Shown piece by piece: positions 746-41,355 of a stretch of 64,000 bases of DNA. This stretch comes from Propionibacteriaceae bacterium (lineage in GTDB: Bacteria > Actinomycetota > Actinomycetes > Propionibacteriales > Propionibacteriaceae). The notes beneath the pieces were generated by a model that ran no database searches, was not told the origin of the DNA, and saw only the letters and a program-made list of their open reading frames with translations. The stretch spans positions 17,209-81,208 of the forward strand of contig DASQDG010000038.1 in the NCBI GenBank assembly GCA_035634295.1, written 5' to 3'. Both the position numbers and the translations under genes were made by a program. The number at the start of each line of letters is the position of its first letter. The stretch's first letter is position 1.

Positions 746-888
746 GGTGGACAGGGGGGTGCAGGTTGTGCGCGGGAGCGTGGACGGGCCTGGCGGGAGC
801 CCGTCACGCGGAGCAACACACTGCCGGCGGCAGCCCTACAACGGGCGGATGGCTGCGACCGCGCACAACCTGCACCCCGCTGCCCACC
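746..888. repeat. Structured intergenic palindromic element, family 1, copy A
   Basis: 19-bp perfect inverted repeat 756-774/860-878. Internal 28-bp core (776-803) identical and 17-bp core (843-859) one mismatch to reverse complement of the element at 41238-41355. Confidence 0.85.
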
Positions 889-914
889 AGCCAGCCGAAG
901 CGGCCCGCTCGAGA

Positions 915-1352
915 TCACACCTGGGGCCGGTTCTCGTACGGCACGGAAAGCACTGTCGTCGTGTGCGTCGACACTTTGCCCGCGGCGCGAATCCGGCTGA
1001 GCAGCGACTCCAGGTGCGTCATCGTCGGCACCTGCACCTTGAGCAGTTAGCTCGGCTCCCCCGCCACGGAGTAGCAGGAGATGATCTCCTCGAGGTGCTC
1101 GAGCCGCTCGGGCGCGTCGTCGGCCTGGCTTGGGTCGAAGGGCTTGATGGCCACGAACGCGGTCACCATCAGCCCCACCTCGGCGGCGTCCAGGCACGCG
1201 TGGTAGCCCCTGATGACGCCTCGCTGCTCCAGCCGGCGGACTCTCTGCTGGGCCGCCGACGTCGACAAGCCGGTTTCCTTGCCGATGTCGGTGTAGGACA
1301 TCCGACCGTCTCTCGCCAACAGGGCGAGAATGCGCCGGTCGAGCTTCTCCAT
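915..1352 (-). pseudogene. Lrp/AsnC family transcriptional regulator interrupted by in-frame TAA (1047-1049)
   Basis: N-terminal HTH (LDRRILALLARDGRMSYTDIGKETGLSTSAAQQRVRRLE). After the stop the frame continues LLKVQVPTMTHLESLLSRIRAAGKVSTHTTTVLSVPYENRPQV* to TGA at 915-917, a typical AsnC C-terminus. Real pseudogene or sequencing error. Confidence 0.8.
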
Positions 1353-1377
1353 GGCGCCATCGTGCCAGTATTCGCCT

Positions 1378-2349
1378 GTGGAGTCCCCTCGCCTGCTGCT
1401 TCTGGATACCGCTTCGCTCTATTTCCGGGCCTTCTTCGGAGTGCCCGACTCGCTCCGGGCGCCCGACGGCACGCCGGTCAACGCGGTCCGCGGACTGCTC
1501 GACTTCATCGCCACCTTGGTGACCAGCTATTCCCCCACCCATCTGGCCTGCTGCTGGGACAACGACTGGCGGCCGGCCTGGCGGGTGGAGCTGATCCCCA
1601 GCTACAAGGCGCATCGGGTGGCCTCGGAGAGTGACTCGGTGGTCAGCGAGATGGCTTCCACCCCCAGCACGGCGGGCGAGACCGCGCCCGACGACCTGGC
1701 CGTCCAGGTGCCCCTTATCCTGCAGGTGCTCGACGCGCTCGGCCTGGCTGTCGTCGGCCGAGACGGCTATGAAGCCGACGACGTCATCGGCACCCTGGCC
1801 AGCACCGCACCGATGCCCACCGACGTGGTCACCGGCGACCGGGACCTGTTCCAGCTGGTCGACGACAAGCGGCAGGTCCGCGTCCTCTACATCGCCCGCG
1901 GGGTGGGCAAGCACGAGCAGGTGGACGAGGCCTGGATACGGGCGAAGTACGGCGTCGCCGCCTCCTCCTACGTGGACTACGCCACCCTGCGCGGGGACGC
2001 CTCCGACGGGCTGCCCGGGGTGGCCGGCATTGGGGAGAAGACGGCCGCCGCCCTGCTGGAGCGCCATGGCGACCTGCACTCGATCCTGAGCGAGGCCAGC
2101 CGTCCGCAGTCGGTCATCAGCAGCTCCGTTCGGTCCAAGCTGGGCGCCGCCATCGACTACCTCGCGGTCGCGCCCACGGTGGTCTCGGTGGTCCGCGACC
2201 TCGACCTCGGGGTGAGCTTCGAGGACCTCCGGCTACCGCGAACGCCTCGAAAGCCCGAACAGTACGCCGAGCTCAGCGACCGCCTAGGCCTCAGCGGCAG
2301 CGGCCGGCGTGTGGTGGCCAGCCTCGCCGGTGTCCAGAGCGCTGGCTGA
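1378..2349 (+). CDS. 5'-3' exonuclease / flap endonuclease (PolI N-terminal-like, Rv2090-type)
   Basis: LLLDTASLYFRAFFG, GYEADDVIGTLA, VVTGDRDLFQLV, LRGDASDGLPGVAGIGEKTA. Start GTG 1378 preceded by CAGTAT -10-like box 6 nt upstream. Confidence 0.9.
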   Translation: MESPRLLLLDTASLYFRAFFGVPDSLRAPDGTPVNAVRGLLDFIATLVTSYSPTHLACCWDNDWRPAWRVELIPSYKAHRVASESDSVVSEMASTPSTAGETAPDDLAVQVPLILQVLDALGLAVVGRDGYEADDVIGTLASTAPMPTDVVTGDRDLFQLVDDKRQVRVLYIARGVGKHEQVDEAWIRAKYGVAASSYVDYATLRGDASDGLPGVAGIGEKTAAALLERHGDLHSILSEASRPQSVISSSVRSKLGAAIDYLAVAPTVVSVVRDLDLGVSFEDLRLPRTPRKPEQYAELSDRLGLSGSGRRVVASLAGVQSAG

Positions 2350-5300
2350 GCGACGCTCTCCGGCGTCGATCACCTCACGGGCGGCGTTCAGGAAGCCGTC
2401 GGCGTAGTGGTCGGGCGGGAAGTCGCCGAGATAGTAGATCTTGGTCTGCCGTCGTACCTGGGCCAGCGGGTCGCGCTGCAGCAGGTCATCGTAGACCTGA
2501 TCGAGGTTGCTGAGGTCTTGGCGAAGCAGATAGCCGGCCTTGGCTGCCGGTGCCTCCTCCAGCAGCTGCTCGGGGGTGCGCCCCACCGACACGATGGCGA
2601 ACGGCTTCTCGGAGTGCAGGTAGTCCGAAACCACCGCCGACACATCGGAGATCATTGCGTCCGAGGCGTTGAAACAGTCCTCGATGGTCATCTGCTGTTC
2701 CGCAGCCGGGCCCCACAGATGCTCGCGTCCGGTGGCGGCCTTGTCGGCGGCCAACAACCGCCCGATTGCGGCGATCATGTCCACGCACACGCTGAAGCGG
2801 TAGTTGAAGGGGTGCGCCCGGAAGATCACCCGGACGCCACGGGCGAGCAGCTCCTGCACGATCTGTCGCCCCAGAGGCAACGAGTAAACCCGGGTGTCGG
2901 CGAACGGTCCCTGCCAGGTCGGCGCGTAGAGCACCGTGGGCTGGGGCTGAGCGCTGGGTGGGCCGATCGCGGGCCGGACAGCCTCCACCTGAGGGCGACC
3001 GACGATCTGGAACTTCTCCCGCGGGATCTCGATGCCGTGCCGGTGGTAGCGGTCGATGCCGGCTTGACCGGCGGTGAACAGCAGGTCATAGATGGCGTGC
3101 ACCGGGTTATAGCAGGCGGGCTTCTCGGAGTCGCCGTGATTGAGCCAGACGTGTGTCAGCTCGCGGCGCTCGACGAAGTGGGTGTTGCGGACGGCGTTGT
3201 TGACGTAGAAGGCCGTGGTCAGCGACGGCGGGATGACGTCCTCGAGGCTGCGCAGGGTGGGCCGGTGAATGACCGGCACTTCGACTTCGGAAGCTGCGGT
3301 CACGGCGGCGATCTCGCGCATCATGGCCACGCTGCGGGTGACGATGATGAACGGGCGCCCGATCCGCATGAAGAACGGCAGCCACATGCCCACCTGGTAG
3401 GCCGCGCCCACGGTGGACGCGAAGTAGACGGCGAACTGAGGGGCATACTCCTGCAGGGCGCCCCGCAGTCGCCCTTCGGCCTTGAGCGCCCGGCTGGCTC
3501 GGAGGAGCGCGGTCACCAGGGTGTCGAGGAACAGTGCAAGAACGACCAGGGCCAGCAGCAGCAGCACCCATCCCGGAGGCGGCACCAGCGCCAGCGCGGC
3601 CGCCAGCAGGCTCACCAGAAAACCGACCAGCGTGCTGACGCCACGAGGAATCCGCTCGGTGACCTGCGCGCCGACCAGCGGGAAGTCCCGTACGAGCAGG
3701 CCAAGACCTCCCCAGGCCGACCTGATGTGCGCCTCTCCTGAAGTGGAGACGGCAAGCAGCACCAGCGCCAGGACCGCCGTGGGAGTCAGGCCCCCACGGT
3801 CGGCAAGCAGCACGCCGGTCACCACCAGCACCACGGCCCGGGTCGCGGGCGCCTGGTTGAGCAGCCCACCCCAGCGGTACGGATCGCTGAGGCTGGTGCC
3901 CGCCGACAGGATCCCGGCAACCCCGGCCAGGACGCAGAGCAGCAGCGTCAGCAACCCGGGCGCATCCAGCAAAGCAGCCGCCAGCGCGACCAAGGCCAGG
4001 CCGGTGCTGGACAGGTTGAGACCGATGCCGCCAAGCAGCCGCCGGTAGCCGGACCACCCCACGGCCCGGGATCCGCCGTTCGGCTCTTCCTCGCCCTCGC
4101 CCTCGTCGTCGGTTTCGTCGTCGTCCTCGGCGGTCTTGCTGGTGACCTGTCGGACGGCGTCAACGAAAGCGTTCGCATAGCCTTCGGCCTCGAAGTCACC
4201 GAGATAGTCGACCCGGATGGCGGCGCGGCGGGTGGCGAGCGGGTCGGGCCCGAGCATCTCCTCCAGTTGAGCATCGAGGTCGGACAGGTCGCCGTCCACC
4301 ACGTAGGCGGCCTGCGCCACCGGATATTCCTCCACGAAGGACTCCGGTGCCGACGGCACCGCAATCATGGCGAACGGCTTAAGGGAGAACAGGTAGTCCG
4401 AAACCACCGCGGACACGTCGGACACCATTGCGTCGGAGGCGTTGATGCAGTCCAGCAGGCCCCGCTCGGACTCCGCGGCGCTGCCCCACAGATGCACCCG
4501 CCCCGTGGTCTGGGCGTCGGCGGCCAGCAGCGCCTGGATGCGGCCGATGGTGGCGGCGTCGTCGGGGAAGTCGTAGTTGAAGGGGTGTGGCCGGAAGATC
4601 ACCGTGGAGCCGCGCTCCAGCAGCGCGCGCACGATCCGCTCCCCCACCGGCAGGGAATACAGCAGGGTCTCCTCCACGTGGCCGCGCCAGGTCGGGGCGT
4701 AGAGCACGACGGGCTGCACGACCTCGGAGATGGAGCGGACGGTGGGCACCACGTCCTCCACCTGCGGCCGGCCGACGACTTGAAACTTGTCGGCGGCGAT
4801 CCGGACGCCGTGGGCGGCGTAGCGTCGGGTGGCCGCCGGCCCCGCAGCGAAGATCCGGTCGTACATCGCGTGCGTCGGGTTGTAGGAGGGCGGCTTGTCG
4901 GAGTCGCCGTGCCCTAGGTAGATGTGGGTCAGGTGCTGGTAGCGGACGAAGACCCCGTTGCCGGAGGAGGCGTTGACGTAGAAGGCGGCCTTGAGCGACG
5001 GCGGCACCAGCGCGTCGAGGTCGGAGATCTTGCGGGCCTCCACCACCGGTACGTCGGTCAGCTCGGCCAGGGCCCGGGCCGGGGTGGAGTTGCGGGTGAT
5101 GACGAGAAACCTTCGGCCGGCTCGTTGAAGGTAGGGCAGCCACATGGTGACCTGATAGGACGCGTCGTCGGGACGCGAGGTGTAGATGACGAACTCGGGG
5201 GCATAGTCGGCGACCGCTTGGGGCACCACGGTCCGCAGCCGGCGAGCGGTGAGGATCTTGCGACGCCCGCGGACGGCCACCAGAAATGGCAGCACCAGGG

Positions 5301-5868
5301 CCAGGGCGGCAGCCAGCGCCCACCACCACGAACTGAGGCCTAGCAACGCCACCGCGACTCCCGCTGAGGTGCTGACCAGACTGGCCGCCACCACCCAACC
5401 TCGCAGGTCACGCGTGCGGGTGACGGTCGGCACCCCCGGCAGGTGCGCCACGACCGGCGGCTGGAAGCGCGCGGCTCGGCGCAGGAACGGCTCCCCCACC
5501 ACGCCCGCGGTGAGCAGAGCGACCGCCAGCGCGGCGCCGAGAACCTGGGCGGGGGCGGCGTTGAAGCCGATCAGGACGCCGAGGCCGGCCACGGTCAGGG
5601 TGCGCGCGACGATGGCTGCGCCCAGGACGCCGCGGCGCTGGACTCTGACCCGAAGCAGCAGCCTCAGCGACAGGCCCAGCACGCAGGCGGACAGCAGCGC
5701 GGTGGCCAGGGCGCTCGAGCTGCCGCCCGGGCGCAGCAGCGACGGTGACGGCGAGCTCAGTGCGCCGACCATGGCCGCCACCACGATCAGGGTGTCCAGA
5801 GCGAGGTTGACGTAGCGCTGCCGCTGTTGCGGGTTTCCGCTCACCTCCGGAGTCGTGATCGCGGTCAT
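2284..5868 (-). CDS. Membrane protein with two tandem CDP-polyol phosphotransferase (TagF/TagB-like) modules
   Basis: Two repeats of a multi-TM segment plus catalytic domain: GHGDSDK/NHGDSEK, VGRPQVE, VLYAPTW, IFRPHPF/IFRAHPF, SDAMxSDVSAVVSDYL. Start 5868 chosen from ATGA overlap with the upstream acyltransferase stop. Confidence 0.8.
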   Translation of the reverse strand: MTAITTPEVSGNPQQRQRYVNLALDTLIVVAAMVGALSSPSPSLLRPGGSSSALATALLSACVLGLSLRLLLRVRVQRRGVLGAAIVARTLTVAGLGVLIGFNAAPAQVLGAALAVALLTAGVVGEPFLRRAARFQPPVVAHLPGVPTVTRTRDLRGWVVAASLVSTSAGVAVALLGLSSWWWALAAALALVLPFLVAVRGRRKILTARRLRTVVPQAVADYAPEFVIYTSRPDDASYQVTMWLPYLQRAGRRFLVITRNSTPARALAELTDVPVVEARKISDLDALVPPSLKAAFYVNASSGNGVFVRYQHLTHIYLGHGDSDKPPSYNPTHAMYDRIFAAGPAATRRYAAHGVRIAADKFQVVGRPQVEDVVPTVRSISEVVQPVVLYAPTWRGHVEETLLYSLPVGERIVRALLERGSTVIFRPHPFNYDFPDDAATIGRIQALLAADAQTTGRVHLWGSAAESERGLLDCINASDAMVSDVSAVVSDYLFSLKPFAMIAVPSAPESFVEEYPVAQAAYVVDGDLSDLDAQLEEMLGPDPLATRRAAIRVDYLGDFEAEGYANAFVDAVRQVTSKTAEDDDETDDEGEGEEEPNGGSRAVGWSGYRRLLGGIGLNLSSTGLALVALAAALLDAPGLLTLLLCVLAGVAGILSAGTSLSDPYRWGGLLNQAPATRAVVLVVTGVLLADRGGLTPTAVLALVLLAVSTSGEAHIRSAWGGLGLLVRDFPLVGAQVTERIPRGVSTLVGFLVSLLAAALALVPPPGWVLLLLALVVLALFLDTLVTALLRASRALKAEGRLRGALQEYAPQFAVYFASTVGAAYQVGMWLPFFMRIGRPFIIVTRSVAMMREIAAVTAASEVEVPVIHRPTLRSLEDVIPPSLTTAFYVNNAVRNTHFVERRELTHVWLNHGDSEKPACYNPVHAIYDLLFTAGQAGIDRYHRHGIEIPREKFQIVGRPQVEAVRPAIGPPSAQPQPTVLYAPTWQGPFADTRVYSLPLGRQIVQELLARGVRVIFRAHPFNYRFSVCVDMIAAIGRLLAADKAATGREHLWGPAAEQQMTIEDCFNASDAMISDVSAVVSDYLHSEKPFAIVSVGRTPEQLLEEAPAAKAGYLLRQDLSNLDQVYDDLLQRDPLAQVRRQTKIYYLGDFPPDHYADGFLNAAREVIDAGERRSASALDTGEAGHHTPAAAAEA

Positions 5869-6926
5869 GGCCGCTCGGGAGAGCGTCGGAACAGCCATCC
5901 CACTGACGGTTCGACCAGGACTCGAAACGTGGCCGACACCACTGACGTCGACAGCACGGCCGTGAGCAGGAGAGCGCCCAGCACCAGGGCGAGCAAGACC
6001 ACGGGCGACTTGACGTCGTCGAGGTAGCCGGCCTGCAGCAAGAAGTAGATCGGCAGCAGGTGCAGCATGTAGACGTACATGGTCGCCCGGCCCCAACCGG
6101 TGACCGAAGTCGTCGAGGCCGAGGTCACCGACACGATGGCGACCACCAGCAGCAGGGCGATCCCGATCAGGAGAAGCCGGGTTCCGCCCGCGGCCCAGCC
6201 CTGCACGCCGATGGTGGCGTAGTTCTTCTCCACCTGGACCCACTCCCGCAGGTGATGCTCGCGAGCGAACGAGACGCCGAGCACGCAGCAGACCAAGGCG
6301 ACCAGGAGCACGCCCAGCGAAGTCGCACGGACCCAACCCCGCCGAAGGAACGGCAGTACCGAGGCCAATGACGGGCGTGACCGCATCGCCCAGCCGGCCA
6401 CGAAGAAGGGCAGCATGCCCAACACCCGGCTGGCGTCGAAGAGCCAGCCGATGGCGAAGTATCCGCTGATGCAGGCCACCGCGACCGCGACCACGACCGG
6501 CAGCTGCAGGTTTGCCATCAGCGGCAGGGCCAGTCGCCAGGCGGCCAGCGCGGGCAGGAACCACAGGTGCCAGTAGGGCGAGGTGAGGTCGAAGGTGAGC
6601 TTGCCCTCCTGCCACCAGCGGATCAGGGCCCAGAGCACGCTGAAGATCACGTACGGGGCCAACAGCTGGCTGATGATCCTCTGACCGTCGGCACCGGTGA
6701 TCGGCTCGGCCCGGGCGAAGTATCCGGAGATGAAGGCGAACAGCGGCATATGGAACGCATAGACGAACAGGTAGAGCGCGTACGCCAGGTCATAGCGCGA
6801 AGCCGACTCGATCGTGTGCCCTACGACCACCAGGGAGATGGCCAACAGCCGGAGGTTGTCCCACAGCGGATCGCGACTGCGGACCGCGCCGGTCGACGCG
6901 GCGGCGCTGGGAGTCGCGATCACCAT
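5865..6926 (-). CDS. Acyltransferase family 3 (OafA-like O-acyltransferase), multi-TM
   Basis: RDPLWDNLRLLAISLVVVGH, YAFHMPLFAFISGYF, WHLWFLPAL, GRATMYVYMLH; about 10 hydrophobic helices. Confidence 0.85.
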   Translation of the reverse strand: MVIATPSAAASTGAVRSRDPLWDNLRLLAISLVVVGHTIESASRYDLAYALYLFVYAFHMPLFAFISGYFARAEPITGADGQRIISQLLAPYVIFSVLWALIRWWQEGKLTFDLTSPYWHLWFLPALAAWRLALPLMANLQLPVVVAVAVACISGYFAIGWLFDASRVLGMLPFFVAGWAMRSRPSLASVLPFLRRGWVRATSLGVLLVALVCCVLGVSFAREHHLREWVQVEKNYATIGVQGWAAGGTRLLLIGIALLLVVAIVSVTSASTTSVTGWGRATMYVYMLHLLPIYFLLQAGYLDDVKSPVVLLALVLGALLLTAVLSTSVVSATFRVLVEPSVGWLFRRSPERP

Positions 6927-9900
6927 TCCGATGCAGGCGCGTCGCCGCGAGGAACGAAGACCGCATCCACCAGGCGTTCGGCGGCGCGGCCGTCCTCGAG
7001 GGGGAGGTAGTCGCTCCGGAACCGCCGATACTGCTCGGCGTATTCGGCCCGGACCTGATCCAGCTGCGACAGTGCCTCGATGATCTCGTCGGTGGTGTTG
7101 ACGAACGGACCCGGCGCGGTGGGCTCGAAGTCGAAGAGCCAGCCCCGGGTCTCGACGTAGCGCTGCAGGTCGGGCACGTGGAAGATCATCGGCTTGCCCG
7201 TGACCCCGAAGTCGAAGCGCAGCGAGGAGTAGTCCACCAAGGCCGCGTCGGCGGCCAGATAGAGGTCGCTCACCTCGGGATAGTCGGTGACGTCGATCAC
7301 CCCGGGGCGCGGCCGGATGCGCCGGTTCACTCGGGCGTTGAACGCGTGACCGCGGACCAAGACCACATAGTCATCGCCTAGGGCTGCGGTGACGGTGTCG
7401 AGGTCGAGGAAGTCCACCATCTCAGCCCGGTGGTCGTCGGGTGAGAGGTAGTCGCGGTAGGTCGGCGCGTACAACACGACGGTCTGGTCGGGCTTGATGC
7501 CGAACGCGTCGCGGACTCGTCGGCGCAGCTCGTCGGCGTGCGGCGACGACAACACGTCGTTGCGTGGATAGCCGATCTCGAGCACCTCACCGGAATAGCG
7601 GAAATCGCGGGTGAGCAGCGGGGTGGCGTACGGGGCCGGCGAGATGAGGTAGTCCCACTCGGCCGAGCGGCGCGCGTAGGAGTCGATCCGCTGAGTCGAG
7701 AAGCCGGCCCTGATCCAGTTCGGGTAGCCCATGGTCTTGAACGGGTAACCGTGGAAGGTCTGCATCAGCACCTGTCCGGCCGGCTTCACGTGGTAGTCCG
7801 GCTGGTACATGTTGTCCATGTAGTAGGTCACGCTGGACAGCAGCCGATACCACTCGGCGCTGTCCTTGACCACGCCGATACCGCCCTCGGGCACGGGTAC
7901 GGAGTGGTCCCGAATCGCCCAGTAGACCGGCAGGTCGCACCCCCGGCGGGCGAGCTCGGCCTGCAGCCCGACCCCGTTGTCAGTAGCGGACTCGCCAAAG
8001 TAGGACTGCAACAGCACGCCCCGGTGAGTGGCCCGGGCGTCGGCCCGCGGTCGACCGCGCAGCAGGTTCTGCCGGTAGCGCCCGGTGGCCTCGGCTCCCA
8101 ACGGACGGGTCAGCGACAGCTGCAGGTTGCCGCCGGCGCCGCCGCGGACCACCCGAGCGTTCACCAGCTCCGAACCCACCGAGACCGGGACCCGAAGCAG
8201 CAGTTCCGCCGACATCAGCACCGGGAACGGCGCGCTTTCCTCAACCGGGCCCGGCAGACCGGGGACGTCGGCCAGCACCCGGTATTCGCCCGAGCGGAGC
8301 GGCAACGTGCCGAACCGGCCCTCGGTGCGGGCGATCGGCACCGTGGCGTGGAAGCGACTCCCGTCGACCTCGGGCAGCACCCAGTCCGAGCGCCGGGTCG
8401 GATGGACCAGGGCGATCCGAAACGGCGCGGCAACCATGCCCGCGAAATGACCGCGAATCTCCAGGTCGCCGTGCGCGTTTGTGCTCAGCTCGGTGGCCAC
8501 CACCGCGCCTCGACGCTCGGTCACCGTCACCCGCCCGAACCGGGTCCGTTCCAAAGCGATCACCTGGCCCGGCAGCTCGACCGGCCCGGAGTCGCCTCGC
8601 CAGGCCACCGGAACTCTTGTCGTGGTGGTCTTGCCGTTCTCGGCTGTACCGCTGACCAGGGCCCGCACCCGCCAGCGACGAGTGGCGGCCGGACTGTCCA
8701 GCAGCCCCTCGGGCAGCGGCGGCAACGCGAGCGAGACCGGGGCACTGGCGTTCTCGGTCGGTTCGAGGGACGTCCGGGCGACCAGCCGAGCGCTCGAATT
8801 GGTCGCTTCAAATCCCACCACATGGCGAAGGTCGCCGTGCAGCACCCCGATCAGCTGCCGGTCCTGGATGGTGGCCTGGACGAGCTCGACCCCGGCTTCG
8901 TCCAGCCGAAGCCGCAACGGGCGTCGCCACTGCCACAGCAGGACCAGATGCGTGCCGTCGGGGCGTCGGCTGTGCTCCAGAGCCGCGGCAGAGCCACGCT
9001 GGTTGACACGGGTGATCGGCGCGGTCACCGAGAACCCGGCCACGTCAACCCGCAGATCGAGGTCCCAGACGTCTCCGATACTCGCTCCGACCTCGTCGCA
9101 CAGCTCGGCGAAAGGAACGTCGACGGCGAACTGGCCCCCCTCATAAGTCGCCCAAGGGTCGTCGTTGGGAGCGGGGAAGATCGGCACCGGCAGGTGCTGG
9201 TTGGCGAACTCAAAGGATCGACCGGTTCGACGGTGCCGGGCCAGCACCGTCACCTGATTGGTGGTGCCCGCGGGCGCCTCGGCCAGGTTGAGGTAGCGCA
9301 GGTAAGCCCAGCCACTCACTCGCAGTCGGGCATCGTGGGTCCACTCCAGGCCCTGCACCGAATGGGACAGCTCCAGCTGATCGGGGCGCAGCAGGAAGAG
9401 CTGCTTGTCCAGGCCGATCTCGGGATCGTCGAAGTAAGGCAGCTGCAGATAGAGGCCCTCGGGGGCGACCGTGGCCGGCCACTGGTGCAGGCGGTGGCCG
9501 TTGCGCGCGATGAACTCCCGGGCTTCCAGCTGCCGATTGGCGCACGCGAGCGCGATCATCACCCGGCGCATGGGCATGGTGCGGTCCCACACCTGCTGCG
9601 ATGCTGCACCGGCAAGATCAGAAACGGCACTCTGCAGCTCGCACCAGTAGTCGTGGGAGGTGGTGGACGGGCTGTTGAGGTACCAGTGGAAGTGCGCGTC
9701 GAAGAGGGTCTGCAGCCAGGCGTCGTAGATCTCGACCGACACCGTGTCCTGCAGGGCCTCGTGGCTGACCCGCCACGCGGCCACACGGTCCCGCACGTCG
9801 CTCACGGTGCTGGTCTGTTGGCTGATCGAACTGCCGTCGGCCCGGGCCCGATACTCATAGACCACCCGAGCGAGCACGTCGATCTTCCGCGCCCGGGCGT

Positions 9901-10594: not shown

Positions 10595-10767
10595 CTCGAA
10601 CCTCGACGCACGTCTGGTCGCTGTGCCGGGCGGCGGCAGCATCACGGGAGTTTACCGTCCCCGCCTGTCCAGCTCACCCTGCGCCGCGCGCCGTGGTCGC
10701 GCGAGCCGTTTCTGCTCTAATGGGCTAGGTCACCTCAGCCCGCATACCTCGACTGGAGTTCCCCGCC

Positions 10768-13525: not shown

Positions 13526-13703
13526 CCAAAAACGGTACCAACCGCGGTGCTGCCGGCTTGGCCGCCAATGACTGCGCCGGCCAGCACCGGGCGGCTCAGA
13601 CTCCGAGCCGCAGACGGCACTGGACCAGCCGTTAGAGTGTGCCGCAATGCCCACTCGGGACTGCGCCGAAGCAGGCCGGCCCGGGGTCACCTCAGGAGGA
13701 CCA

Positions 13704-15317: not shown

Positions 15318-15323
15318 GGACTG

Positions 15324-15396
15324 CCGCTTCGAGCCCCGCCCGCTACGTCGAGCCCGCTGCGGCTAGGTCGAAGTGGGAGAGCGGGGCTCGAAGCGG
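15324..15396. repeat. REP-like palindromic element, family 2, copy A
   Basis: 16-bp perfect inverted repeat ccgcttcgagccccgc (15324-15339) / gcggggctcgaagcgg (15381-15396) between convergent genes; similar element at 57233-57295. Confidence 0.85.
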
Positions 15397-27815: not shown

Positions 27816-27846
27816 CGCAGGTTGCGCGCAGAACCCCTTCCCGCCG

Positions 27847-29106: not shown

Positions 29107-29234
29107 GAACTCCCGCTGACCGATCAGGCGACATGCGAACGCGCGGCGCGTCGTGAGAGGCGTCTACGGGTAGTAAACTACACCTCCTTGCGGTGACCCG
29201 GCGTCAACTCACACTTGTCGTTTCCGGTCACCGG

Positions 29235-29258
29235 CCGAACGGCAACATTGCCGTTCGG
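29235..29258. promoter_or_regulatory. Perfect palindrome in the leader of the PLD-family gene (possible operator or hairpin)
   Basis: ccgaacggcaa-ca-ttgccgttcgg, 11-bp arms. Confidence 0.4.
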
Positions 29259-29350
29259 GAAACAGCGTCGTAGGTAGAACTGCACAGCAAGCTTCACACT
29301 CGGCCTTATCTGACAGGAGACCGATGAGGTCGAGCTCATCCGGGGTACGT

Positions 29351-31102: not shown

Positions 31103-31134
31103 CGCGCTGGTTGCCCGGTGGCTCGGCTGCAGTG

Positions 31135-32883: not shown

Positions 32884-32919
32884 GGCCAAGACCTCCTTGC
32901 CCATGAGGCTACCTGCCGT

Positions 32920-33834: not shown

Positions 33835-33861
33835 TCGTGACAGCCCTTTCGCGCTGGGTGT

Positions 33862-35394
33862 TCATGCCGTTCTCATGCCGAACAGGCCCAGCTGCCAGCC
33901 CGGACCGAACGAGTTTTCGTTGATGTCCACGCCGTCCCGGGCGAATAAATAGTCGTCGCCCTGGCTGACCGGCAGCACCACCTTGTCGGCGGCCGCCTGC
34001 TTCTGCAGCGCGGTCAGCAGCCGCGCCGCCTCCGCCTCGGTGGTGGTCGAGCTGAACGCCAGCTCGAGCCGCGTCACCGTGCTGCTGCTGCTGGGCAGCG
34101 GGGCGTCCAGGTAGGGCTGCAGCCATGACACCGCGGTCGCCGTCCAGGCCTTGCGGTCCAGGAGCTGCAGGTCCGTGGTTGTCGGCTGCCCGCCGGTCGG
34201 CCCGGGGCGCAGCCGAACGCTCATCCCGCCCGTGTCCTCCAGCCGGGTGCGGATCTGGGTGGCCAGGTCCCGGGAGTCGGGCATGGCGGGGTCGTAGCCC
34301 AGGTTGATCTGGACACGCGATGACCAGGTGACCTTAGGCTTGCCCCGGCCGCCGACGGGCAGACTGTTGACGTGACCGGGTACGCCGCCGGGCACCACCG
34401 AGTCGAGCGTCCGGTCCTCCTGCAGCGCCTGCTCGATCGCCGAGCGCAGGGCCGCGTTGGCGCGCATCGGCGAGCGCGGGTTCCACAGCAGCTCGTGCAC
34501 CCGTACGCCGGTCAGCACCCGCGGTCGGAAGCCGTCACCGGTCAACTGGTCGGGATCGGGGCTCGCCTGCTGCAGCAGGCGGGTGACGGCGGCCTGGTTG
34601 AGGCCGCGCCACACCACGTCGACCTCCTGTTGGCGCATGGCGGCCTCGATGCTGGCTGAGTCCGGGGCGACCCGGTAGAGCACGTCGTTGGCACGACCCG
34701 GGTTGCGGCCCACGTATTTCCGGTTCCGCGACAGCCGGAGGTCGCTGCCCGAGAAGTAGGTGACCGAGAACGGCCCTGAGCCGACGATCGGCGACGTGGC
34801 CGGGCGCACCTCGTCGGCGTCGTAGACCCGCCGGTTCACGATCGAGGCCGCCGGCGAGGCCAGCGCCCAGACGAACTGGGTGTCCACGCGGCTCAGCAGA
34901 AACCGGACCGTCTTCGAGTCGGGAGTCTCGATCCGACGCAGCGAGGACAGCAGCGAGGCCGACGAGCCGGCGACGTCGAGCCGCGTCGCTCGCTCGATGC
35001 TGAACTTGACGTCGGCCGAGGTGACCGGACTGCCGTCGTGGAAGAACAGCTTCTCGTTGAGGGTGCAGGTGTACGTGGTTGCGGCCGTGAAAAGGCAGTC
35101 GCGGGCAGCGTCGGGCTTCGGGGCGCTCTCCCCGGGGTCCGCCGACATCAGCCGCTGAAAGGCGTTGAGGGCGAGCACGGCGGAGCCCGCATCGGTAACC
35201 GCCGCCGGGTCGGCCACCCGGATGGGGTCGGTGGACATCACCCGCAACGGCCGCGCGGCGGTCGAGCTCTGGCTGGGACTGGGACCCGAGCCACCTCGGG
35301 CGGGCGTGCAGCCGACAGCGAGCAAAGGCACCACCAGAGCGGCCAGGGCAGCCCGGAGCCGGCGCCGCGACGACTGGCAAGCCGACTCAGTCAC
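33862..35394 (-). CDS. ABC transporter substrate-binding lipoprotein, family 5 (peptide/nickel type)
   Basis: Lipobox LAVGC, FHDGSPVTSADVKFS, GSGPF. Confidence 0.85.
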   Translation of the reverse strand: MTESACQSSRRRLRAALAALVVPLLAVGCTPARGGSGPSPSQSSTAARPLRVMSTDPIRVADPAAVTDAGSAVLALNAFQRLMSADPGESAPKPDAARDCLFTAATTYTCTLNEKLFFHDGSPVTSADVKFSIERATRLDVAGSSASLLSSLRRIETPDSKTVRFLLSRVDTQFVWALASPAASIVNRRVYDADEVRPATSPIVGSGPFSVTYFSGSDLRLSRNRKYVGRNPGRANDVLYRVAPDSASIEAAMRQQEVDVVWRGLNQAAVTRLLQQASPDPDQLTGDGFRPRVLTGVRVHELLWNPRSPMRANAALRSAIEQALQEDRTLDSVVPGGVPGHVNSLPVGGRGKPKVTWSSRVQINLGYDPAMPDSRDLATQIRTRLEDTGGMSVRLRPGPTGGQPTTTDLQLLDRKAWTATAVSWLQPYLDAPLPSSSSTVTRLELAFSSTTTEAEAARLLTALQKQAAADKVVLPVSQGDDYLFARDGVDINENSFGPGWQLGLFGMRTA

Positions 35395-36082
35395 CGGCGC
35401 GCTCGAGCAGCTGCCCCACCGAGGCCGCATCAAGCTCGGTCAGCGACCCGACGTGAATGCGCCGCGGGGCCACCGCGATCCGAACGTGGTTGGGCACGGC
35501 CAGGACCAGAGCGCCGGCGGCATTGCCCGAGGCGGCACCGGTGTTCGAGTCCTCGATCACCACACACGAGCGCGGTGACACGCCGAGCTGCCGGCAGGCG
35601 ACCTCGTACGGCTCCGGGTGCGGCTTGCCGTTGCTCACCTCGTCGCCGGCCACCGAGACCACGAAGGTGGCCGGTGGCAGCTGGCTCAGGGCGGCGTCCA
35701 GCAGCACCCGGTAGGAGGCTGAGACCAGCGCGCAGGGGACGCCGGCATCGGCCAGCGAGGCCAGCAGATCGAGAGCTCCCGGACGCCACGGGATCGGTTG
35801 GCTGGTGAGTGTCTGTGCCACCCGGTCGACCAGCTGCTCGACCACCCACTCGGGCGTCAGGTCATCCCGCCCGAGCACGTCGAGGATGTAGGAGCCCGAG
35901 TCGATCAGCGCGTTGCCGACCAGCTGTTCGGCGTGGTCGGCGCTCCAGCTGCCGCCGAGGCCGGACACCAGGTCGTATTCAGCCGCCACCCAAACTGGTT
36001 CGGTGTCGGCGAGCGTGCCATCGAAGTCCCACAGCACGGCGGCGAGATGGGGCACCGCGCTGGACATGTTCGGTTGGCTCAT
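35387..36082 (-). CDS. HAD family phosphatase
   Basis: WDFDGTLADTE, VSAS, KPHPEPY, IEDS. Confidence 0.9.
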   Translation of the reverse strand: MSQPNMSSAVPHLAAVLWDFDGTLADTEPVWVAAEYDLVSGLGGSWSADHAEQLVGNALIDSGSYILDVLGRDDLTPEWVVEQLVDRVAQTLTSQPIPWRPGALDLLASLADAGVPCALVSASYRVLLDAALSQLPPATFVVSVAGDEVSNGKPHPEPYEVACRQLGVSPRSCVVIEDSNTGAASGNAAGALVLAVPNHVRIAVAPRRIHVGSLTELDAASVGQLLERAGD

Positions 36083-36296
36083 GGCTCCGGCCATTGTTCC
36101 AGCCTGACCTTGGCAAGCGAAATTGCGACAGCGCAGCCCATCGCCCGTCCGCAACCCGGACAGGCTGGCCACCTGGGTGCCGCGGGCTCTCGCGCGGTGA
36201 CCTTCGGTGCGCGGCGTCGTTCTGCCAAAGCACGAGCAGAGCCGGCCCGTCGCCGCTACAGTGCCGAACTATCGGACTTCACCCCAAGGAGCATTC

Positions 36297-36707
36297 GTGG
36301 CCTCTCTCCTCACCCCCTACCTCGGCTTCCGCGACGACGCGCGGCAGGCCCTGGAGTTCTACCAGCAGGTGTTCGGCGGCGAGCTGACCCTGAGCACGTT
36401 CGGCGAGTACGGCATGGCGGACACGCCACAAGCCGACCAGATCATGCACGGCCAGCTCGAAACCCCCATCGGCTTCACCCTGATGGCCTCTGACACCCCT
36501 CCGGGCATGGACTACTCGGAGGGGGCCCGGATCACCGTGGCCCTCACCGGCGACGATGTGGACGAGCTCCGCGGCTACTTCGAGAAGCTGTCCGACGGCG
36601 CTGAAGTGACGGTGAAGCTGGAGAAGCAGATGTGGGGCGATGAGTACGGCTCGCTGATCGACCGTTTCGGCATCCCGTGGATGGCCAACATCAGCACACC
36701 GTCCTGA
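36297..36707 (+). CDS. VOC/PhnB-like family protein
   Basis: LTPYLGF..ARQALEFYQQVFGG, IMHGQL, QMWGDEYGSLIDRFGIPW; aaggag RBS. Confidence 0.88.
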   Translation: MASLLTPYLGFRDDARQALEFYQQVFGGELTLSTFGEYGMADTPQADQIMHGQLETPIGFTLMASDTPPGMDYSEGARITVALTGDDVDELRGYFEKLSDGAEVTVKLEKQMWGDEYGSLIDRFGIPWMANISTPS

Positions 36708-36734
36708 CCAGGGGCCAGTCAGCGCACGGGGCGG

Positions 36735-39700
36735 TCACCGGGCGTTGAAGTACTTGGCCTCCGGGTGGTGCACCACCAGCGCGTCGGTCGACTGCTCCGG
36801 GTGCAGCTGCAGCTCCTCGGAGAGCTCCACGCCGATCCGCTCCGGGCGCAGCAGCGCGACCAGCTTGGCCCGGTCCTCGAGCTCGGGACAGGCGGGATAG
36901 CCGAAGGAGTACCGCGAGCCACGGTAGGCCTGGTCGCGGATCATCTCCTCGACGTCGCCGTCCTCGCGCGCGAAGCCGAGATCGGAGCGGATCCGTGAGT
37001 GCCACATCTCCGCCAGGGCCTCGGTCAGCTGGACGCTCAGCCCGTGCAGCTCCAGATAGTCCCGGTAGGCGTTCCTGGCGAACAGCTCACCGGTCACCTT
37101 GGCCACCGCTGAACCCATGGTGACCAGGTGGAACGCGATCACGTCAGGCCCCTTGTCCCGGGCCAGCTCACGGTCGCGGAAGAAGTCGGCCAGGCAGAGG
37201 TAGCGTCCGCGAGTCTGACGCGGGAACGTGAACCGGTGCAGCTCGGCGGCTGGGTCTTCGATGTCGACCGAGGCCGCCCCTGGCCGGAGCACCACCACGT
37301 CGTCGCCGGTGCTGTAGCAGGGCCAGTAGCCGTACACCACCGAGAAGTTGGCGATGGCGTCGGTGTGGATCCGGTCCAGCAGCGCGCGTAGCCGCGGCCG
37401 GCCCTCAGACTCGACCAGATCCTCATAGCTCGGTCCGTTTTTGCTCCCCTTGAGCCCCCACTGCCCCATGAAGGTGGCGCGCTCGTCGAGGTAGGAGGCC
37501 ACCTCGGCCAGCTTGATGCCCTTGACGATCCGGTCCCCCCAGAACGGCGGAGTCGGTACGTCGACGTCGCGGGCCACATCGGAGCGGGCGGGCAGCGCGA
37601 CCGGCTCCTCGACCACCACTGGGGCCGGCTTGAGCTTGACCCGGCGCTCGCGGGGGGCCGGCAGGGCCGCACCCGTCTCACCCCGCTTGACCGCCATCAC
37701 GGCGTCCATCAGCCGCAGCCCCTCAAAGGCGTCCCGCGCATAGCGCACCTCGCCGGAGAACACCTCCCGCAGGTCCTGCTCCACGTAGGCGCGGGTCAGA
37801 GCGGCCCCGCCGAGAAACACCGGGTAGGTCGGCGCGACCCCACGCGAGTTCATCTCCAGCAGGTTCTCCTTCATCACCACCGTCGACTTCACCAACAGCC
37901 CGGACATGCCGATCGCGTCCGCCGAGTGCTCCTCTGCCGCCTCGATGATGGTGCTGATGGGCTGCTTGATCCCGAGGTTGACCACGGTGTAGCCATTGTT
38001 GGTCAAGATGATGTCGACCAGGTTCTTGCCGATGTCGTGCACGTCGCCCTTGACCGTGGCCAGCACGATGGTTCCCTTGCCCTCGGTGTCGGCCTTTTCC
38101 ATGTGCGGCTCCAGGTGGGCCACCGCGGTCTTCATCACCTCGGCCGACTGCAGCACGAACGGCAGCTGCATCTGGCCGGACCCGAACAGCTCACCAACCA
38201 CCTTCATGCCGTTGAGTAGGTCCTCGTTGATGATGCTCAGCGGCGTCTTGCCGACCGCCATCGCCTCCTCGAGGTCGGCCTCCAGGCCCTTGCCCTCGCC
38301 GTCGATGATGCGCTGCTGCAGGCGCTCCGCCAAAGGCATCGCGGCCAGCTCTGCCGCCCGGGTGGCCTTGGAGTCGGCCGTGGTGACCCCGTCGAACAGC
38401 TCCAGGAACCTCTGCAGGGGGTCATAGGCAGGTTGGTCGTCGGTGGCCGCGCGGCGCCGGTCATAGACCATGTCGAGGGCGACCTCGCGCTGCTCCTCGG
38501 GAATCCGCGCCATGGGTACGATCTTGGCCGCGTGCACGATCGCCGAGTCGAGCCCCGCCTCGGTGCACTCGTGCAGGAAAACCGAGTTCAGCACCACCCG
38601 GGCCGCCGGGTTGAGCCCGAAACTGACGTTGGACAGGCCAAGAGTGGTCTGGACGTCGGGATATAGCTCCTTGACCCGCCGGATCGCCTCGATCGTCTCG
38701 ATGCCGTCGCGTCGGGTCTCCTCCTGACCGGTGGCGATCGGGAAGGTCAGGCAGTCCAGGATGATGTCGGAGGTCCGCATTCCCCAGTTCTGGGTCAGGT
38801 CCTCGACCAGCCTGGTGGCGACGCGCACCTTCCAGTCGGCCGTCCGGGCCTGCCCCTCCTCGTCGATGGTCAGCGCCACCACTGCTGCGCCGTGCTCGGT
38901 CACCAGCGGCATGATCTTGGCGAACCGCGAGCCGGGGCCGTCGCCGTCCTCGTAGTTGACCGAGTTAACCGCGCACCGGCCGGCGAGGCACTCCAGCCCC
39001 GCCTGCAGCACCGCAGGCTCAGTCGAGTCGAGCATGATCGGCAGCGTGGAGGCGGTGGCAAACCGCGACGCGATCTCGCGCATGTCGGACGCGCCGTCGC
39101 GACCGACGTAGTCGACGTTGAGGTCGAGCAGATGCGCGCCGTCGCGGATCTGGGCGCGGGCGATGTCGACGCACTCGTCCCAGTTCTCGGCCAGCATCAC
39201 GTCGCGGAAGGCGCGAGAGCCGTTGGCGTTGGTGCGCTCGCCGATGGACAGGTAGCTGGCGTCCTGGCGGAACGGCACCTCGGCGTACAGGGAGGCCACG
39301 CCGGCGGTCTCGGCCGGGCGGCGGGCACGTACCTCGCGGCCGTGAAGTCGATCGACCACCTGGCGCAGATGCTCTGGGGTGGTGCCGCAACAGCCGCCGA
39401 TCAGGCCGAGGCCGAACTCGCCGACGAACTGCTCGAGTGCGTCGGCCAGCTCGCCCGGCGTCAGCGGGTACGCAGCGCCGTCGGAGGTCAGTTGCGGCAG
39501 GCCGGCGTTGGGCATGCAGCCGACGCCGATGCTGGCGTACCGCGACAGGTGGCGCAGGTGCTCGCTCATCTCGGCTGGACCGGTCGCGCAGTTCAGTCCG
39601 ATCACGTCGATACCGAGCGGCTCCAGCGAGGTCAGGGCGGCGCCGATCTCGGTGCCCAGCAGCATCGTGCCGGTGGTCTCCACGGTGACGTTGACGATCA

Positions 39701-40256
39701 CCGGGACGTCGGCGCCGCCGGCCCTGATGGCCCGTTTGGCGCCGATCGCTGCCGCCTTGGCCTGCAGCAGGTCCTGGCTGGTCTCGATCAGCACGGCATC
39801 GATGCCGCCAAGCAGCATCCCCTCAACCTGAGTCTGGTAAGCGTCGCGCAGGGTGGCGAAGGACACGTGCCCGAGCGTGGGCAGCTTCGTTCCCGGACCG
39901 ACACTGCCCAGCACGAATCGAGGGTGGTCGCGCGTGCTGTGTGCGTCGGCCGCCTCTCTGGCGATCGTGGCGGCGGCGTGCGCCAGCTCGTGGATCCGGT
40001 CACCGATGTCGTACTCGTTGAGGGCGGCGAAGTTGGTGCCGAAGGTGTTGGTCTCCACCGCATCGACGCCGACGGAGAAGTAGGCGTCGTGGATTGCGCG
40101 CACCACGTCGGGTCGGGTGACGTTAAGAATCTCGTTGCAGCCTTCCAGCTGCTGGAAGTCCTGCAGGCTCAGGTCATAGCCCTGCAGCATCGTCCCCATG
40201 GCCCCGTCGCCGATCACGACGCGACGCGAAAGCTCGGACCGGAGATCAGCAGGCAC
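36735..40256 (-). CDS. metH: Cobalamin-dependent methionine synthase
   Basis: GDGAMGT, GLNCATG, GGCCG, IGERTNANGS, KGDVHDIGKN, RYSFGYPACP. Confidence 0.97.
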   Translation of the reverse strand: MPADLRSELSRRVVIGDGAMGTMLQGYDLSLQDFQQLEGCNEILNVTRPDVVRAIHDAYFSVGVDAVETNTFGTNFAALNEYDIGDRIHELAHAAATIAREAADAHSTRDHPRFVLGSVGPGTKLPTLGHVSFATLRDAYQTQVEGMLLGGIDAVLIETSQDLLQAKAAAIGAKRAIRAGGADVPVIVNVTVETTGTMLLGTEIGAALTSLEPLGIDVIGLNCATGPAEMSEHLRHLSRYASIGVGCMPNAGLPQLTSDGAAYPLTPGELADALEQFVGEFGLGLIGGCCGTTPEHLRQVVDRLHGREVRARRPAETAGVASLYAEVPFRQDASYLSIGERTNANGSRAFRDVMLAENWDECVDIARAQIRDGAHLLDLNVDYVGRDGASDMREIASRFATASTLPIMLDSTEPAVLQAGLECLAGRCAVNSVNYEDGDGPGSRFAKIMPLVTEHGAAVVALTIDEEGQARTADWKVRVATRLVEDLTQNWGMRTSDIILDCLTFPIATGQEETRRDGIETIEAIRRVKELYPDVQTTLGLSNVSFGLNPAARVVLNSVFLHECTEAGLDSAIVHAAKIVPMARIPEEQREVALDMVYDRRRAATDDQPAYDPLQRFLELFDGVTTADSKATRAAELAAMPLAERLQQRIIDGEGKGLEADLEEAMAVGKTPLSIINEDLLNGMKVVGELFGSGQMQLPFVLQSAEVMKTAVAHLEPHMEKADTEGKGTIVLATVKGDVHDIGKNLVDIILTNNGYTVVNLGIKQPISTIIEAAEEHSADAIGMSGLLVKSTVVMKENLLEMNSRGVAPTYPVFLGGAALTRAYVEQDLREVFSGEVRYARDAFEGLRLMDAVMAVKRGETGAALPAPRERRVKLKPAPVVVEEPVALPARSDVARDVDVPTPPFWGDRIVKGIKLAEVASYLDERATFMGQWGLKGSKNGPSYEDLVESEGRPRLRALLDRIHTDAIANFSVVYGYWPCYSTGDDVVVLRPGAASVDIEDPAAELHRFTFPRQTRGRYLCLADFFRDRELARDKGPDVIAFHLVTMGSAVAKVTGELFARNAYRDYLELHGLSVQLTEALAEMWHSRIRSDLGFAREDGDVEEMIRDQAYRGSRYSFGYPACPELEDRAKLVALLRPERIGVELSEELQLHPEQSTDALVVHHPEAKYFNAR

Positions 40257-40369
40257 GCTGCGAGAATAGTCCGGGCAGCACCCTCCGCTCGGGCATAACC
40301 ACGATGTGACGCGCTGTGCTCCCAGGGCGGCAGCGAGGCGGGGAGGCGCCAGCAGTCTAAAGTTGCGGT

Positions 40370-41218
40370 ATGGAGGACTCAGCCAACCCTGGCCTGCGCG
40401 GGCTGCATGACCCGGTGGTCATCGTCGCGTTCGGGGGATGGAACGACGCCGGGACGGCTGCCTCGTCCACCGTGGAGCACCTGAGCGAGTGCTACGACGC
40501 GGAGCTGGCGTTCGCGATCGACCCTGACGACTTCTACGACTTTCAGGTCAACCGGCCCCAGGTCAGCACCAGCGACTCAGACGAGCGGGTGATCGCCTGG
40601 CCGACCACCGAGATCAGGGTGGGCCGGTTGCCGAGCGGCCGTGACCTGGTCTTGATCTCGGGGCTGGAGCCGAACTTGAGGTGGCGGCAGTTCAGCGCCC
40701 TGATCAGCTCGGCGCTCAAGTCGTCGGGGGCGAGCAGGGTCTTCATGCTGGGGGCGTTGCTGGCCGACACCCCACACACGCGACCTATTCCGGTATCGGT
40801 GACCACCACCGACGCGTCTCTGGCCGAGGAGTTCTCCTTGCCGCAGTCGACCTATGAGGGCCCGACCGGAATTGTGGGGGTGCTCGGCGAAGCGCTGTCC
40901 GGCGGCGGCATGCGAGTGCTCACCTTGTGGGCCGCTATCCCTCACTACGTCTCCCACCCACCGTGCCCCAAGGCGACGCTGGCACTGCTGTCGCAGTTGG
41001 AGGAGCTGCTCGACTCTCCCCTGGCTCTGGGCGACCTGCCGGAGCTGGCCCGGGCCTGGGAACGTGGGGTCGACGAGCTGGCGGCCGAGGACACCGAGGT
41101 TGCGGAGTACGTCACGTCGCTGGAGCAGCAGCAGGATGCGACGGAGCTGCCCGAAGCGAGTGGCGACGCCATCGCTGCCGAGTTCGAGCGCTATCTGCGG
41201 CGGCGCTCCGACGGGTGA
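40370..41218 (+). CDS. PAC2 (proteasome assembly chaperone) family protein
   Basis: AFGGWNDAG, DPDDFYDFQVNRP, EPNLRW, YEGPTGIVG, WAAIPHYV. Confidence 0.9.
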   Translation: MEDSANPGLRGLHDPVVIVAFGGWNDAGTAASSTVEHLSECYDAELAFAIDPDDFYDFQVNRPQVSTSDSDERVIAWPTTEIRVGRLPSGRDLVLISGLEPNLRWRQFSALISSALKSSGASRVFMLGALLADTPHTRPIPVSVTTTDASLAEEFSLPQSTYEGPTGIVGVLGEALSGGGMRVLTLWAAIPHYVSHPPCPKATLALLSQLEELLDSPLALGDLPELARAWERGVDELAAEDTEVAEYVTSLEQQQDATELPEASGDAIAAEFERYLRRRSDG

Positions 41219-41237
41219 TCTGGTCTGGGCTGTCGCT

Positions 41238-41355
41238 GGGCGGGGGCGGTCAGGAGTACGCGCGTCGCAACCATCCGCCCTCGCTCCGCTGGCGCTCCAC
41301 TCGGGCTCCCGCCAGGCCCGTCCACGCTCCGCGCGTACTCCTAACCGCCCTGCCC
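41238..41355. repeat. Structured intergenic palindromic element, family 1, copy B (inverted relative to copy A)
   Basis: Imperfect outer inverted repeat 41238-41264/41330-41355; cores 41302-41329 and 41264-41280 match reverse complements of 776-803 and 843-859. Confidence 0.85.

Follow-up and report, generated by a model that had tools for sequence, protein, structure and literature searches.

Gene-end hairpin repeats with copy-specific covarying stems and an invariant asymmetric loop in Propionibacteriaceae

To our knowledge, classical terminators are missing in most Actinomycetota, and how the transcripts of these bacteria end is an open question. Here we describe a family of hairpin repeats located at the 3′ ends of genes, two copies of which (A and B) are present in a 64,000-nt stretch of DNA from a Propionibacteriaceae bacterium (GenBank assembly GCA_035634295.1, contig DASQDG010000038.1, positions 17,209 to 81,208; hereafter the window). 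The window is part of contig C38 of a genome of 3.66 Mb with 68% GC in 120 contigs. The analysis followed an original prediction, made from the letters of the window, which had singled out two intergenic elements with a common core and different closing stems.

Several described systems resemble these repeats. The TRIT element of Mycobacterium is a conserved hairpin at stop codons, for which a binding factor has been postulated (PMC3152330), and it overlaps few of the termination sites mapped by Term-seq (bioRxiv 10.1101/2022.06.01.494293). In a 2026 atlas of RNA 3′ ends, TRIT and Correia elements were proposed to shape 3′ ends via RNase III cleavage, and orthologous genes were reported to use different gene-end elements in different species (PMC13714241). 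Like TRIT, the element described here is a dispersed, conserved actinobacterial hairpin, which is tightly placed at stop codons and has no canonical U-tract. It is set apart by TRIT's published description. The TRIT stem is conserved and palindromic, hence bidirectional, and is located around −8 to the stop, only in Mycobacterium and with 147 copies per genome (PMC3152330), whereas our element has a stem of free sequence, a conserved asymmetric loop, a strict polarity and a position at about +21 nt, and is found in 1–39 copies per genome in other families. The Correia elements (CREE/NEMIS) of Neisseria are also intergenic long hairpins of 100–160 nt beside genes, whose presence differs between close species, and they are cut by RNase III. 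Their terminal inverted repeats of 26 bp are conserved, and with a TA target duplication and an IHF site they resemble miniature inverted-repeat transposable elements (MITEs); the arms of the present element, in contrast, are copy-specific. Conserved terminal inverted repeats common to all copies, as expected of a MITE family, are not found.

The REP/BIME and REPIN-RAYT systems likewise consist of extragenic palindromic repeats at gene 3′ ends, in tandem and inverted clusters, and REPs act as mRNA stabilisers or gyrase sites. They are, however, only 20–40 nt long, conserved in sequence and accompanied by a cognate Y1 transposase (RAYT), whereas here the stem is variable, the apical domain is conserved and no Y1 enzyme is found. 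A six-frame search with PF01797 (Y1; RAYT/IS200) gave no match in any of 41 genomes, comprising this genome and 40 relatives, among them two with 39 (G021) and 23 (G015) copies of the element; the controls matched in 6 of 14 genomes. The suggestion of the original prediction that the element is a substrate of a HUH (RAYT/IS200-like) enzyme thus finds no backing. REP/REPIN-RAYT membership was rejected on the same grounds and for want of a conserved palindrome sequence; the extragenic location at gene ends does fit. With its conserved apex and free stem, the element reverses the anatomy usual for REP, MITE and TRIT repeats. The attC sites of integrons also lie directly past an open reading frame (ORF), conserve their structure with little conservation of the stem sequence, and have a functional fold that is antisense to the gene. 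Unlike our element, they keep R/L boxes at the stem base and extrahelical bases, and form arrays next to intI with accessory cassettes; in the present family the apex is conserved, copies are dispersed, and the neighbours are housekeeping genes (gyrB, PAC2, dnaA). No conserved attC R″/R′ (GTTRRRY) box was detected at the stem base and copies are single and dispersed, although intI was not searched for.

Against Rfam 15, the window gave only a tRNA at gathering score, and five copies searched with E up to 10 gave only chance miRNA/snoRNA matches, far under the cut-offs, in agreement with the earlier remark that no named family was recognised. No earlier description was found in literature searched by core sequence and for Microlunatus repeats. 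We rate the kind of element as known, being that of dispersed gene-end hairpin repeats, and as new the family, with a free covarying stem, an invariant asymmetric loop, a strict polarity and no Rfam 15 match.

The element is one long hairpin of about 110–170 nt. Read on its G-rich (core) strand, it contains an outer stem P1, with a median of 26 bp, 92% paired and free in sequence, and a second helix P2 of 2–6 bp, which covaries (e.g. GGGGC/GCCCC or GCCGCC/GGCGGU) and in some copies is GGAGC/GCGAC with tandem G.A pairs. Next is an almost invariant, asymmetric internal loop, in which 19 nt on the 5′ side (GUGGAYGGGYCUGGCGGGA) face 8 nt on the 3′ side (GGAUGGYU); over 112 distinct copies the 5′ strand is invariant except at its two Y positions. 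The apical helix P3 covaries and is closed by the caps GAG-CCUG-CGA or GAG-GAA-CGA, or by an extension of 20–70 nt. The P1 arms are unrelated between copies and, except for those of C16a/C53, no arm has another match in the genome, and inner stem segments are common to subfamilies only. The arms are therefore neither guides, a role that was considered and rejected, nor shared inverted repeats. In 127 copies the base directly 5′ of the stem is A in 68% and the base directly 3′ is G in 63%; no direct repeat of the kind left by a target-site duplication is evident in these data, which do not include very close filled/empty strain pairs. On either strand, G prevails in the 5′ arms (47%) and C in the 3′ arms (45%).

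A MAFFT alignment analysed with RNAalifold gave a poor consensus, and the structure was therefore set by hand from the visible covariation and then tested. Among the ~160 copies compared, the strand 3′ of GGCGGGA varies in step with the bases directly 5′ of GGAUGG, yielding the P3 partner pairs GCCCG...CGGGC, GCACG...CGUGC, GCGCC...GGCGC, GCACC...GGUGC and GCCGC...GCGGC; the middle pair of P3 is CG in 59, GC in 23 and AU in 18 of the 112 distinct copies. An ungapped seed of 46 copies with this structure was used to build a covariance model, to which 113 more matches were aligned. Standard pairs occupy 82% of the cells compared to 55% in shuffles, the covariation score is 0.526 compared to 0.115 (and at most 0.10 in every slid register), and double changes occur at 17 of the 21 pairs. 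Mutual information peaks only on P1, P2 and P3, and the loop columns are invariant, because of which no tertiary covariation is detectable within the loops. With G-quadruplexes enabled, ViennaRNA predicts none in the loop.

Copies A and B are the only members of the family in the whole window according to a covariance-model search. Their features are as follows (window positions; RNA folds, covariance-model alignment and comparison of copies as indicated).

741–893, plus strand: copy A, whole hairpin with imperfect outer extension (RNA fold)
756–775, plus strand: copy A, 5′ arm of outer stem P1, ggggtgcaggttgtgcgcgg, forming a perfect 20-bp inverted repeat with 859–878
780–798, plus strand: copy A, invariant 5′ strand of the internal loop, GTGGACGGGCCTGGCGGGA (112 distinct copies compared)
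799–846, plus strand: copy A, apical helix P3 (GCCCGT...ACGGGC) with a 36-nt insertion (family covariation; covariance-model alignment)
847–854, plus strand: copy A, invariant 3′ strand of the internal loop, GGATGGCT
859–878, plus strand: copy A, 3′ arm of P1
41231–41361, minus strand: copy B, whole hairpin with outer extension (RNA fold)
41330–41350, minus strand: copy B, 5′ arm of P1 in core sense, GGGCGGTTAGGAGTACGCGCG, pairing with 41244–41264 with one G.U
41307–41325, minus strand: copy B, invariant 5′ loop strand, GTGGACGGGCCTGGCGGGA
41277–41306, minus strand: copy B, P3 (GCCC GAG ...16 nt... CGA GGGC; covariance-model alignment)
41269–41276, minus strand: copy B, invariant 3′ loop strand, GGATGGTT
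41244–41264, minus strand: copy B, 3′ arm of P1 in core sense

The covariance model matches copy A at 762–870 in the whole-genome search and at 770–864 in the window search, and copy B at 41253–41343 (76 bits, E = 1.7e-15). The sequence observations of the original prediction are accurate. The identical core of 28 nt, GAGCGTGGACGGGCCTGGCGGGAGCCCG, occurs exactly twice in the window, at 776–803 (+) and 41302–41329 (−), and has no match in 100 dinucleotide-preserving shuffles even with 3 mismatches permitted. The 17-nt core, GGGCGGATGGCTGCGAC at 843–859, recurs with its one mismatch as GGGCGGATGGTTGCGAC at 41264–41280 (−), and the second block common to both copies can be written as GGGCGGATGG(C/T)TGCGAC. 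Each copy is closed by its own 20-bp stem, the stems of A (756–775/859–878) and B (41244–41264/41330–41350) having no sequence relation, and the P1 5′ arm of copy A, ggggtgcaggttgtgcgcgg, has no second match anywhere in the genome. That pairing is kept in spite of this exchange is confirmed by the RNA folds, which are long hairpins of −106.6 kcal/mol (z = −7.2 vs shuffles) for copy A and −90 kcal/mol (z = −8.0) for copy B. The cgggc/gcccg hairpin that had been proposed within the core, on the other hand, can form in both copies but is not a conserved pairing; its GCCCG pairs downstream instead.

The family extends well beyond the window. In this genome, nhmmer and the covariance model both arrive at exactly 9 copies. 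Scanning named genomes for an exact 21-mer, a sample that gives a lower bound only, yields at least 118 further loci, and copies elsewhere number in the hundreds, so that the reservation that only two copies might exist does not hold. Most of the 21-mer loci listed are in Microlunatus, Friedmanniella and Propionibacteriaceae metagenome-assembled genomes (MAGs), the remaining ones in Cellulosimicrobium cellulans, Luteimicrobium, Antribacter, Intrasporangiaceae, Jatrophihabitans and Actinomyces acetigenes. Within the same genus, about 18 of the 24 genomes contain a degenerate 25-mer, in 1–39 copies each; it is essentially missing from the order's other families. When 401 genomes of the class were searched with the model, just 3 of 163 genera were found to carry the element, and the distribution is therefore patchy. 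A blastn search with the core found no copies on known plasmids or phages, and an origin from either was rejected for lack of such matches.

The elements are extragenic and located at the 3′ ends of genes. Genes were called with a crude, heuristic ORF filter based on GC content at third codon positions, by which both neighbours could be called at 106 loci. In 90 cases, the gene that follows 3′ of the G-rich strand is encoded on the opposite strand, and its stop adjoins the element; in 77 of the 90, the stop is at most 40 nt from the end of the folded element. The median distance from stem end to stop is 21 nt, with stem ends taken from the arm alignment. The arrangements of neighbouring genes around the element (E→, core-sense direction) are:

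Tandem, ← E→ ←: 46 of 106 loci
Convergent, → E→ ←: 44 of 106 loci
Tandem, sense: 14 of 106 loci
Divergent: 2 of 106 loci

All 9 copies in this genome obey the rule, so that the earlier remark on orientation, namely that both elements of the window follow a gene 3′ end (Lrp, stop at 915–917 on the minus strand; PAC2, stop at 41216–41218 on the plus strand) with the core in the same relative orientation, is right and is general. The mRNA of the abutting gene would carry the C-rich complement of the core, and position and polarity point to this transcript.

At orthologous sites both conservation and turnover are observed. The gyrB-gyrA spacer, which carries one of the 9 copies of this genome, contains the element in 17 of 29 species retrieved, always adjoining the gyrB stop with the same polarity. 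It is empty (18–93 nt, no hairpin) in four genomes (G049, G075, G057, G021) and holds a different hairpin family in three (G005, G043, G058). On a gyrA/gyrB tree the presence of the element is clustered, with 6 changes compared to a shuffled mean of 9.6 (5 of 500 shuffles are as low), and well-supported branches force at least 2 presence changes. In related lineages the gyrB-gyrA stems shift by compensatory steps (GGGAUCCUGGGG, GGGGUGCUGGGG and GGGCUGCUGGGG, each with a matching 3′ arm), while the 19-nt and 8-nt loop strands are unchanged; core and pairing are therefore held in place by selection. The proposal that selection acts on structure plus core sequence is in this way supported by the paired fraction, the covariation score and the double changes given above, together with the invariance of the loops at this locus. 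In G074 and G063, which are sister species, the cores have the rare UUGGA variant in common, but the stems that enclose them bear no relation at all to each other. Such wholesale stem replacement at one locus could point to new biology. In G063/G060, sequence upstream of the new stem that might have been left over from an old arm proved on alignment to be conserved flank, and the idea was rejected.

The spacer between PAC2 and the ribulose-phosphate epimerase gene is similarly variable. It is short and without a palindrome in G019, G010 and G070, has other, unrelated hairpin repeats in G073, G060, G042 and G048, in G012 and G013 harbours members of the present family that differ in stem or polarity, and contains an inverted pair of elements in G045. 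Elements or their stems thus also turn over at orthologous sites, and the gyrB and PAC2 sites show the same species-to-species exchange of gene-end elements as described in the 3′-end atlas (PMC13714241). Insertion into pre-existing terminator hairpins was considered as the origin of the copies and rejected, since the orthologous empty sites (PAC2/epimerase and gyrB-gyrA; spacers of 15–93 nt) contain no palindrome.

By analogy with REP, TRIT and Correia elements, we favour, with a probability of roughly one half, the reading that the family consists of gene-end structured repeats that would shape transcript 3′ ends or uncouple neighbouring genes, with the loop as a docking site. The reason for favouring such a role is that a near-perfect duplex of 20–35 bp right after a stop codon is a natural RNase III substrate or exonuclease barrier. 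When transcribed, it would act as an RNase III-type substrate or a barrier to 3′-exonucleases, and cleavage or blockage at the duplex would set transcript ends and uncouple the neighbouring genes. The invariant 19+8-nt loop predicts a specific binding partner, and would dock a conserved, hypothetical host factor; new copies would arise rarely, by a route without a Y1 transposase. Unrelated hairpin families take the same post-stop position in other species, which was counted in favour of a generic gene-end role. From these considerations we infer that the elements probably have their role in marking or processing the ends of transcripts, and not as substrates of a transposase. The strong covariation and the strict rules of position and polarity provide a concrete, testable handle on gene-end processing in Actinomycetota.

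Several observations weigh against this reading. The types of mismatch in the stems speak for the G-rich strand, antisense to the abutting gene, as the one that folds: G:T mismatches on this strand outnumber their A:C counterparts by 100 to 34, G:G outnumber C:C by 44 to 15, and G:A plus A:G outnumber C:T plus T:C by 54 to 16. The G-rich strand also has the lower minimum free energy in 116 of 139 copies with RNA parameters, and folds better in 128 of 139 with DNA parameters, in a comparison that is biased as the element boundaries were chosen on the G-rich strand. The transcribed strand and the better-folding strand are thus in apparent conflict, which could point to new biology. No U-tract is present on either flank (T is 4–17% at +1 to +15, and A about 20–29% on the other flank), and hence the element is not a canonical intrinsic terminator. 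Within the gyrB-gyrA operon, strong termination by the element would be possible only if gyrA were transcribed from a promoter of its own. Finally, the factor binding to the loop is only hypothetical, and the gene calls on which the position rule is based are heuristic.

The best-surviving rival, in our view an unlikely one, is a selfish, non-autonomous mobile element of MITE or REP type, in which the loop would be the recognition site of a trans-acting enzyme and the gene-end polarity would reflect where insertions are tolerated or targeted. It would account for the patchy spread over genera, for the range of 0 to 39 copies per genome inside one genus, for gain, loss and turnover at orthologous sites with empty sites that lack a palindrome, for the unrelated stems at the same site in sister species, and for the tandem and inverted pairs, including a palindromic composite of 0.9–1.2 kb with at least 9 repeats in G021. 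However, a Y1 transposase is missing from the 41 genomes, the arms differ between copies and thus provide no conserved terminal inverted repeats, and none of the elements was found on plasmids or phages. No transposase was found among the recurrent neighbours of 139 loci and no coding-type ORF between inverted pairs, in a search that was not exhaustive. Moreover, many species retain an intact core at one locus, an indication of constraint at the level of the host.

The inverted pairs in G021 and G045 consist of two copies, each adjoining one of two convergent genes; as transposon ends they were rejected, since the interior is non-coding and each copy merely abuts one convergent gene. The G021 composite (loci L036–L043, e.g. 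L036:880–1820) is non-coding, its repeats are 70–95% identical and mostly lie between convergent genes, and it comprises two inverted copies of the element and several other hairpins of the GACTTGTCAGAAC and CCCTTCGACAAGCTCAGGG types. Head-to-tail pairs of elements, 112–158 nt apart and each with its own stem, are seen in another genus (G110 C6:68913–69134, G110 C2:59257–59459, G135 C2:240272–240462 and G205 C5:49987–50220), where the core reads GUGGCGGGCCUGGCGGGA GGCC...GGCC GGAUGG. On the minus strand of a Propionibacteriaceae MAG (L066, ~5165–5330), the 5′ arm and the first ~20 nt of the core are partially triplicated in tandem, broken after CCTGGCG, and followed by one full copy; the break may be a slippage or recombination point within the loop strand.

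Two further proposals give the G-rich strand the active role. In the first, which we consider quite doubtful, the G-rich strand is the functional RNA, either a cis-antisense small RNA or a one-way barrier to convergent or antisense transcription before the 3′ end of the abutting gene. Beside the mismatch spectrum and the folding energies, this proposal is consistent with the tandem G.A/A.G pairs, typical of RNA, that P2 and the tip of P3 show in that sense, and with the arrangement in convergent spacers, where each gene has its own copy facing the incoming polymerase. On the other hand, no promoter-like site is present upstream and there is no U-tail, 46 of 106 loci have both neighbours on the other strand and hence no known transcript in core sense, the boundaries in the energy comparison were picked on the G-rich strand, and the tight stop-codon spacing is not needed by the model. 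In the second, to which we give similarly little credence, a conserved actinobacterial factor would recognise the invariant G-rich asymmetric loop of a host-selected module; the strand recognised would be the one antisense to the adjoining gene, in the form of RNA or of folded DNA. The module would act as a polar gene-end insulator, and its stems would be renewed by an undescribed palindrome-regenerating process. If true, it might, for example, block convergent or antisense transcription, or be a site linked to topology or replication, with an enrichment around dnaA-gyrA.

Least probable is a site acting at the DNA level, either a folded single strand or cruciform for a recombinase or HUH enzyme (attC/REP-like) or a site for a replication or topology protein such as gyrase or DnaA near the origin: it is apparently the gene's bottom strand that folds, directly past the ORF as in attC, DNA parameters favour this strand (128 of 139 copies), origin-proximal neighbours are over-represented, one copy borders an oriC-like field of DnaA boxes and the core GTGGAY matches 6 of the 9 bases of a DnaA box, but this match is poor, a Y1 HUH enzyme and conserved boxes at the stem base are lacking, copies are dispersed beside housekeeping genes without forming arrays, and the orientation with respect to replication is inconsistent.

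The origin-proximal cluster among the recurrent neighbours of the 139 loci comprises GyrA/B (11), DnaA (8), DnaN (7) and 6-phosphogluconate dehydrogenase (6), and elements are strikingly frequent around dnaA-dnaN-gnd-gyrB-gyrA. At L125 (2979–3400), the element is located 42 nt past dnaA, at the edge of the oriC-like field, which contains the DnaA-box-like repeats TGTGGAC, TGTGGAG and TGTGGAA. This element is co-oriented with dnaA and thus is an exception to the polarity rule. In a complete genome (G014), about 10 of 15 copies are co-oriented with the fork and the orientation is opposite at gyrB-gyrA; a replication-strand rule was rejected because of this inconsistency.

The two genes that adjoin the copies in the window are:

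915–1352, minus strand: Lrp/AsnC-family gene, with its stop (915–917) adjoining copy A (Pfam HTH_AsnC-type, 2.3e-16, on 1050–1352)
40361–41218, plus strand: PAC2-family gene, with its stop (41216–41218) adjoining copy B (Pfam PAC2, 2e-55)

The Lrp/AsnC-family gene contains an in-frame TAA at 1047–1049, between the helix-turn-helix domain and a C-terminal piece of 43 residues, which matches AsnC_trans_reg on 918–1046 at 6e-4, under the Pfam curated cut-off; possible explanations are a pseudogene, an assembly error and read-through. Neither a promoter nor a terminator consensus was found near copies A and B. A second, unrelated hairpin is present at 41387–41453, between copy B and the epimerase stop, with a 13-bp perfect stem (cgctgcgcccgct/agcgggcgcagcg) and a 41-nt loop.

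Other hairpin repeats were observed in the course of the analysis. Two elements (G000 C30:77045–77157 and C36:91461–91566) have the same architecture as the family described here, with a unique, perfect stem of 21 bp and a conserved apex with GGGUGUGG(U)CGGGCGUU, and one of them has the same GAGCUUGCGA tip; they look like a sister family. A different family has the conserved stem (C)TTCGAGCCCCG...CGGGGCTCGAA(G), with inner GTCGAGCCC/GGGTCGA(A/G)G, and occurs in the window at 15324–15396 and 57233–57295, and at G000 C42:136080, C80:828 and C59:111931. A palindrome family with conserved arms (C)AAAGTAAGCGCTCGA...TCGAGCGCTTACTTT(G) and loops of 32–38 nt is found at G000 C85:27776–27855, C25:15310–15377, C80:10908–10973 and C53:73330–73387.

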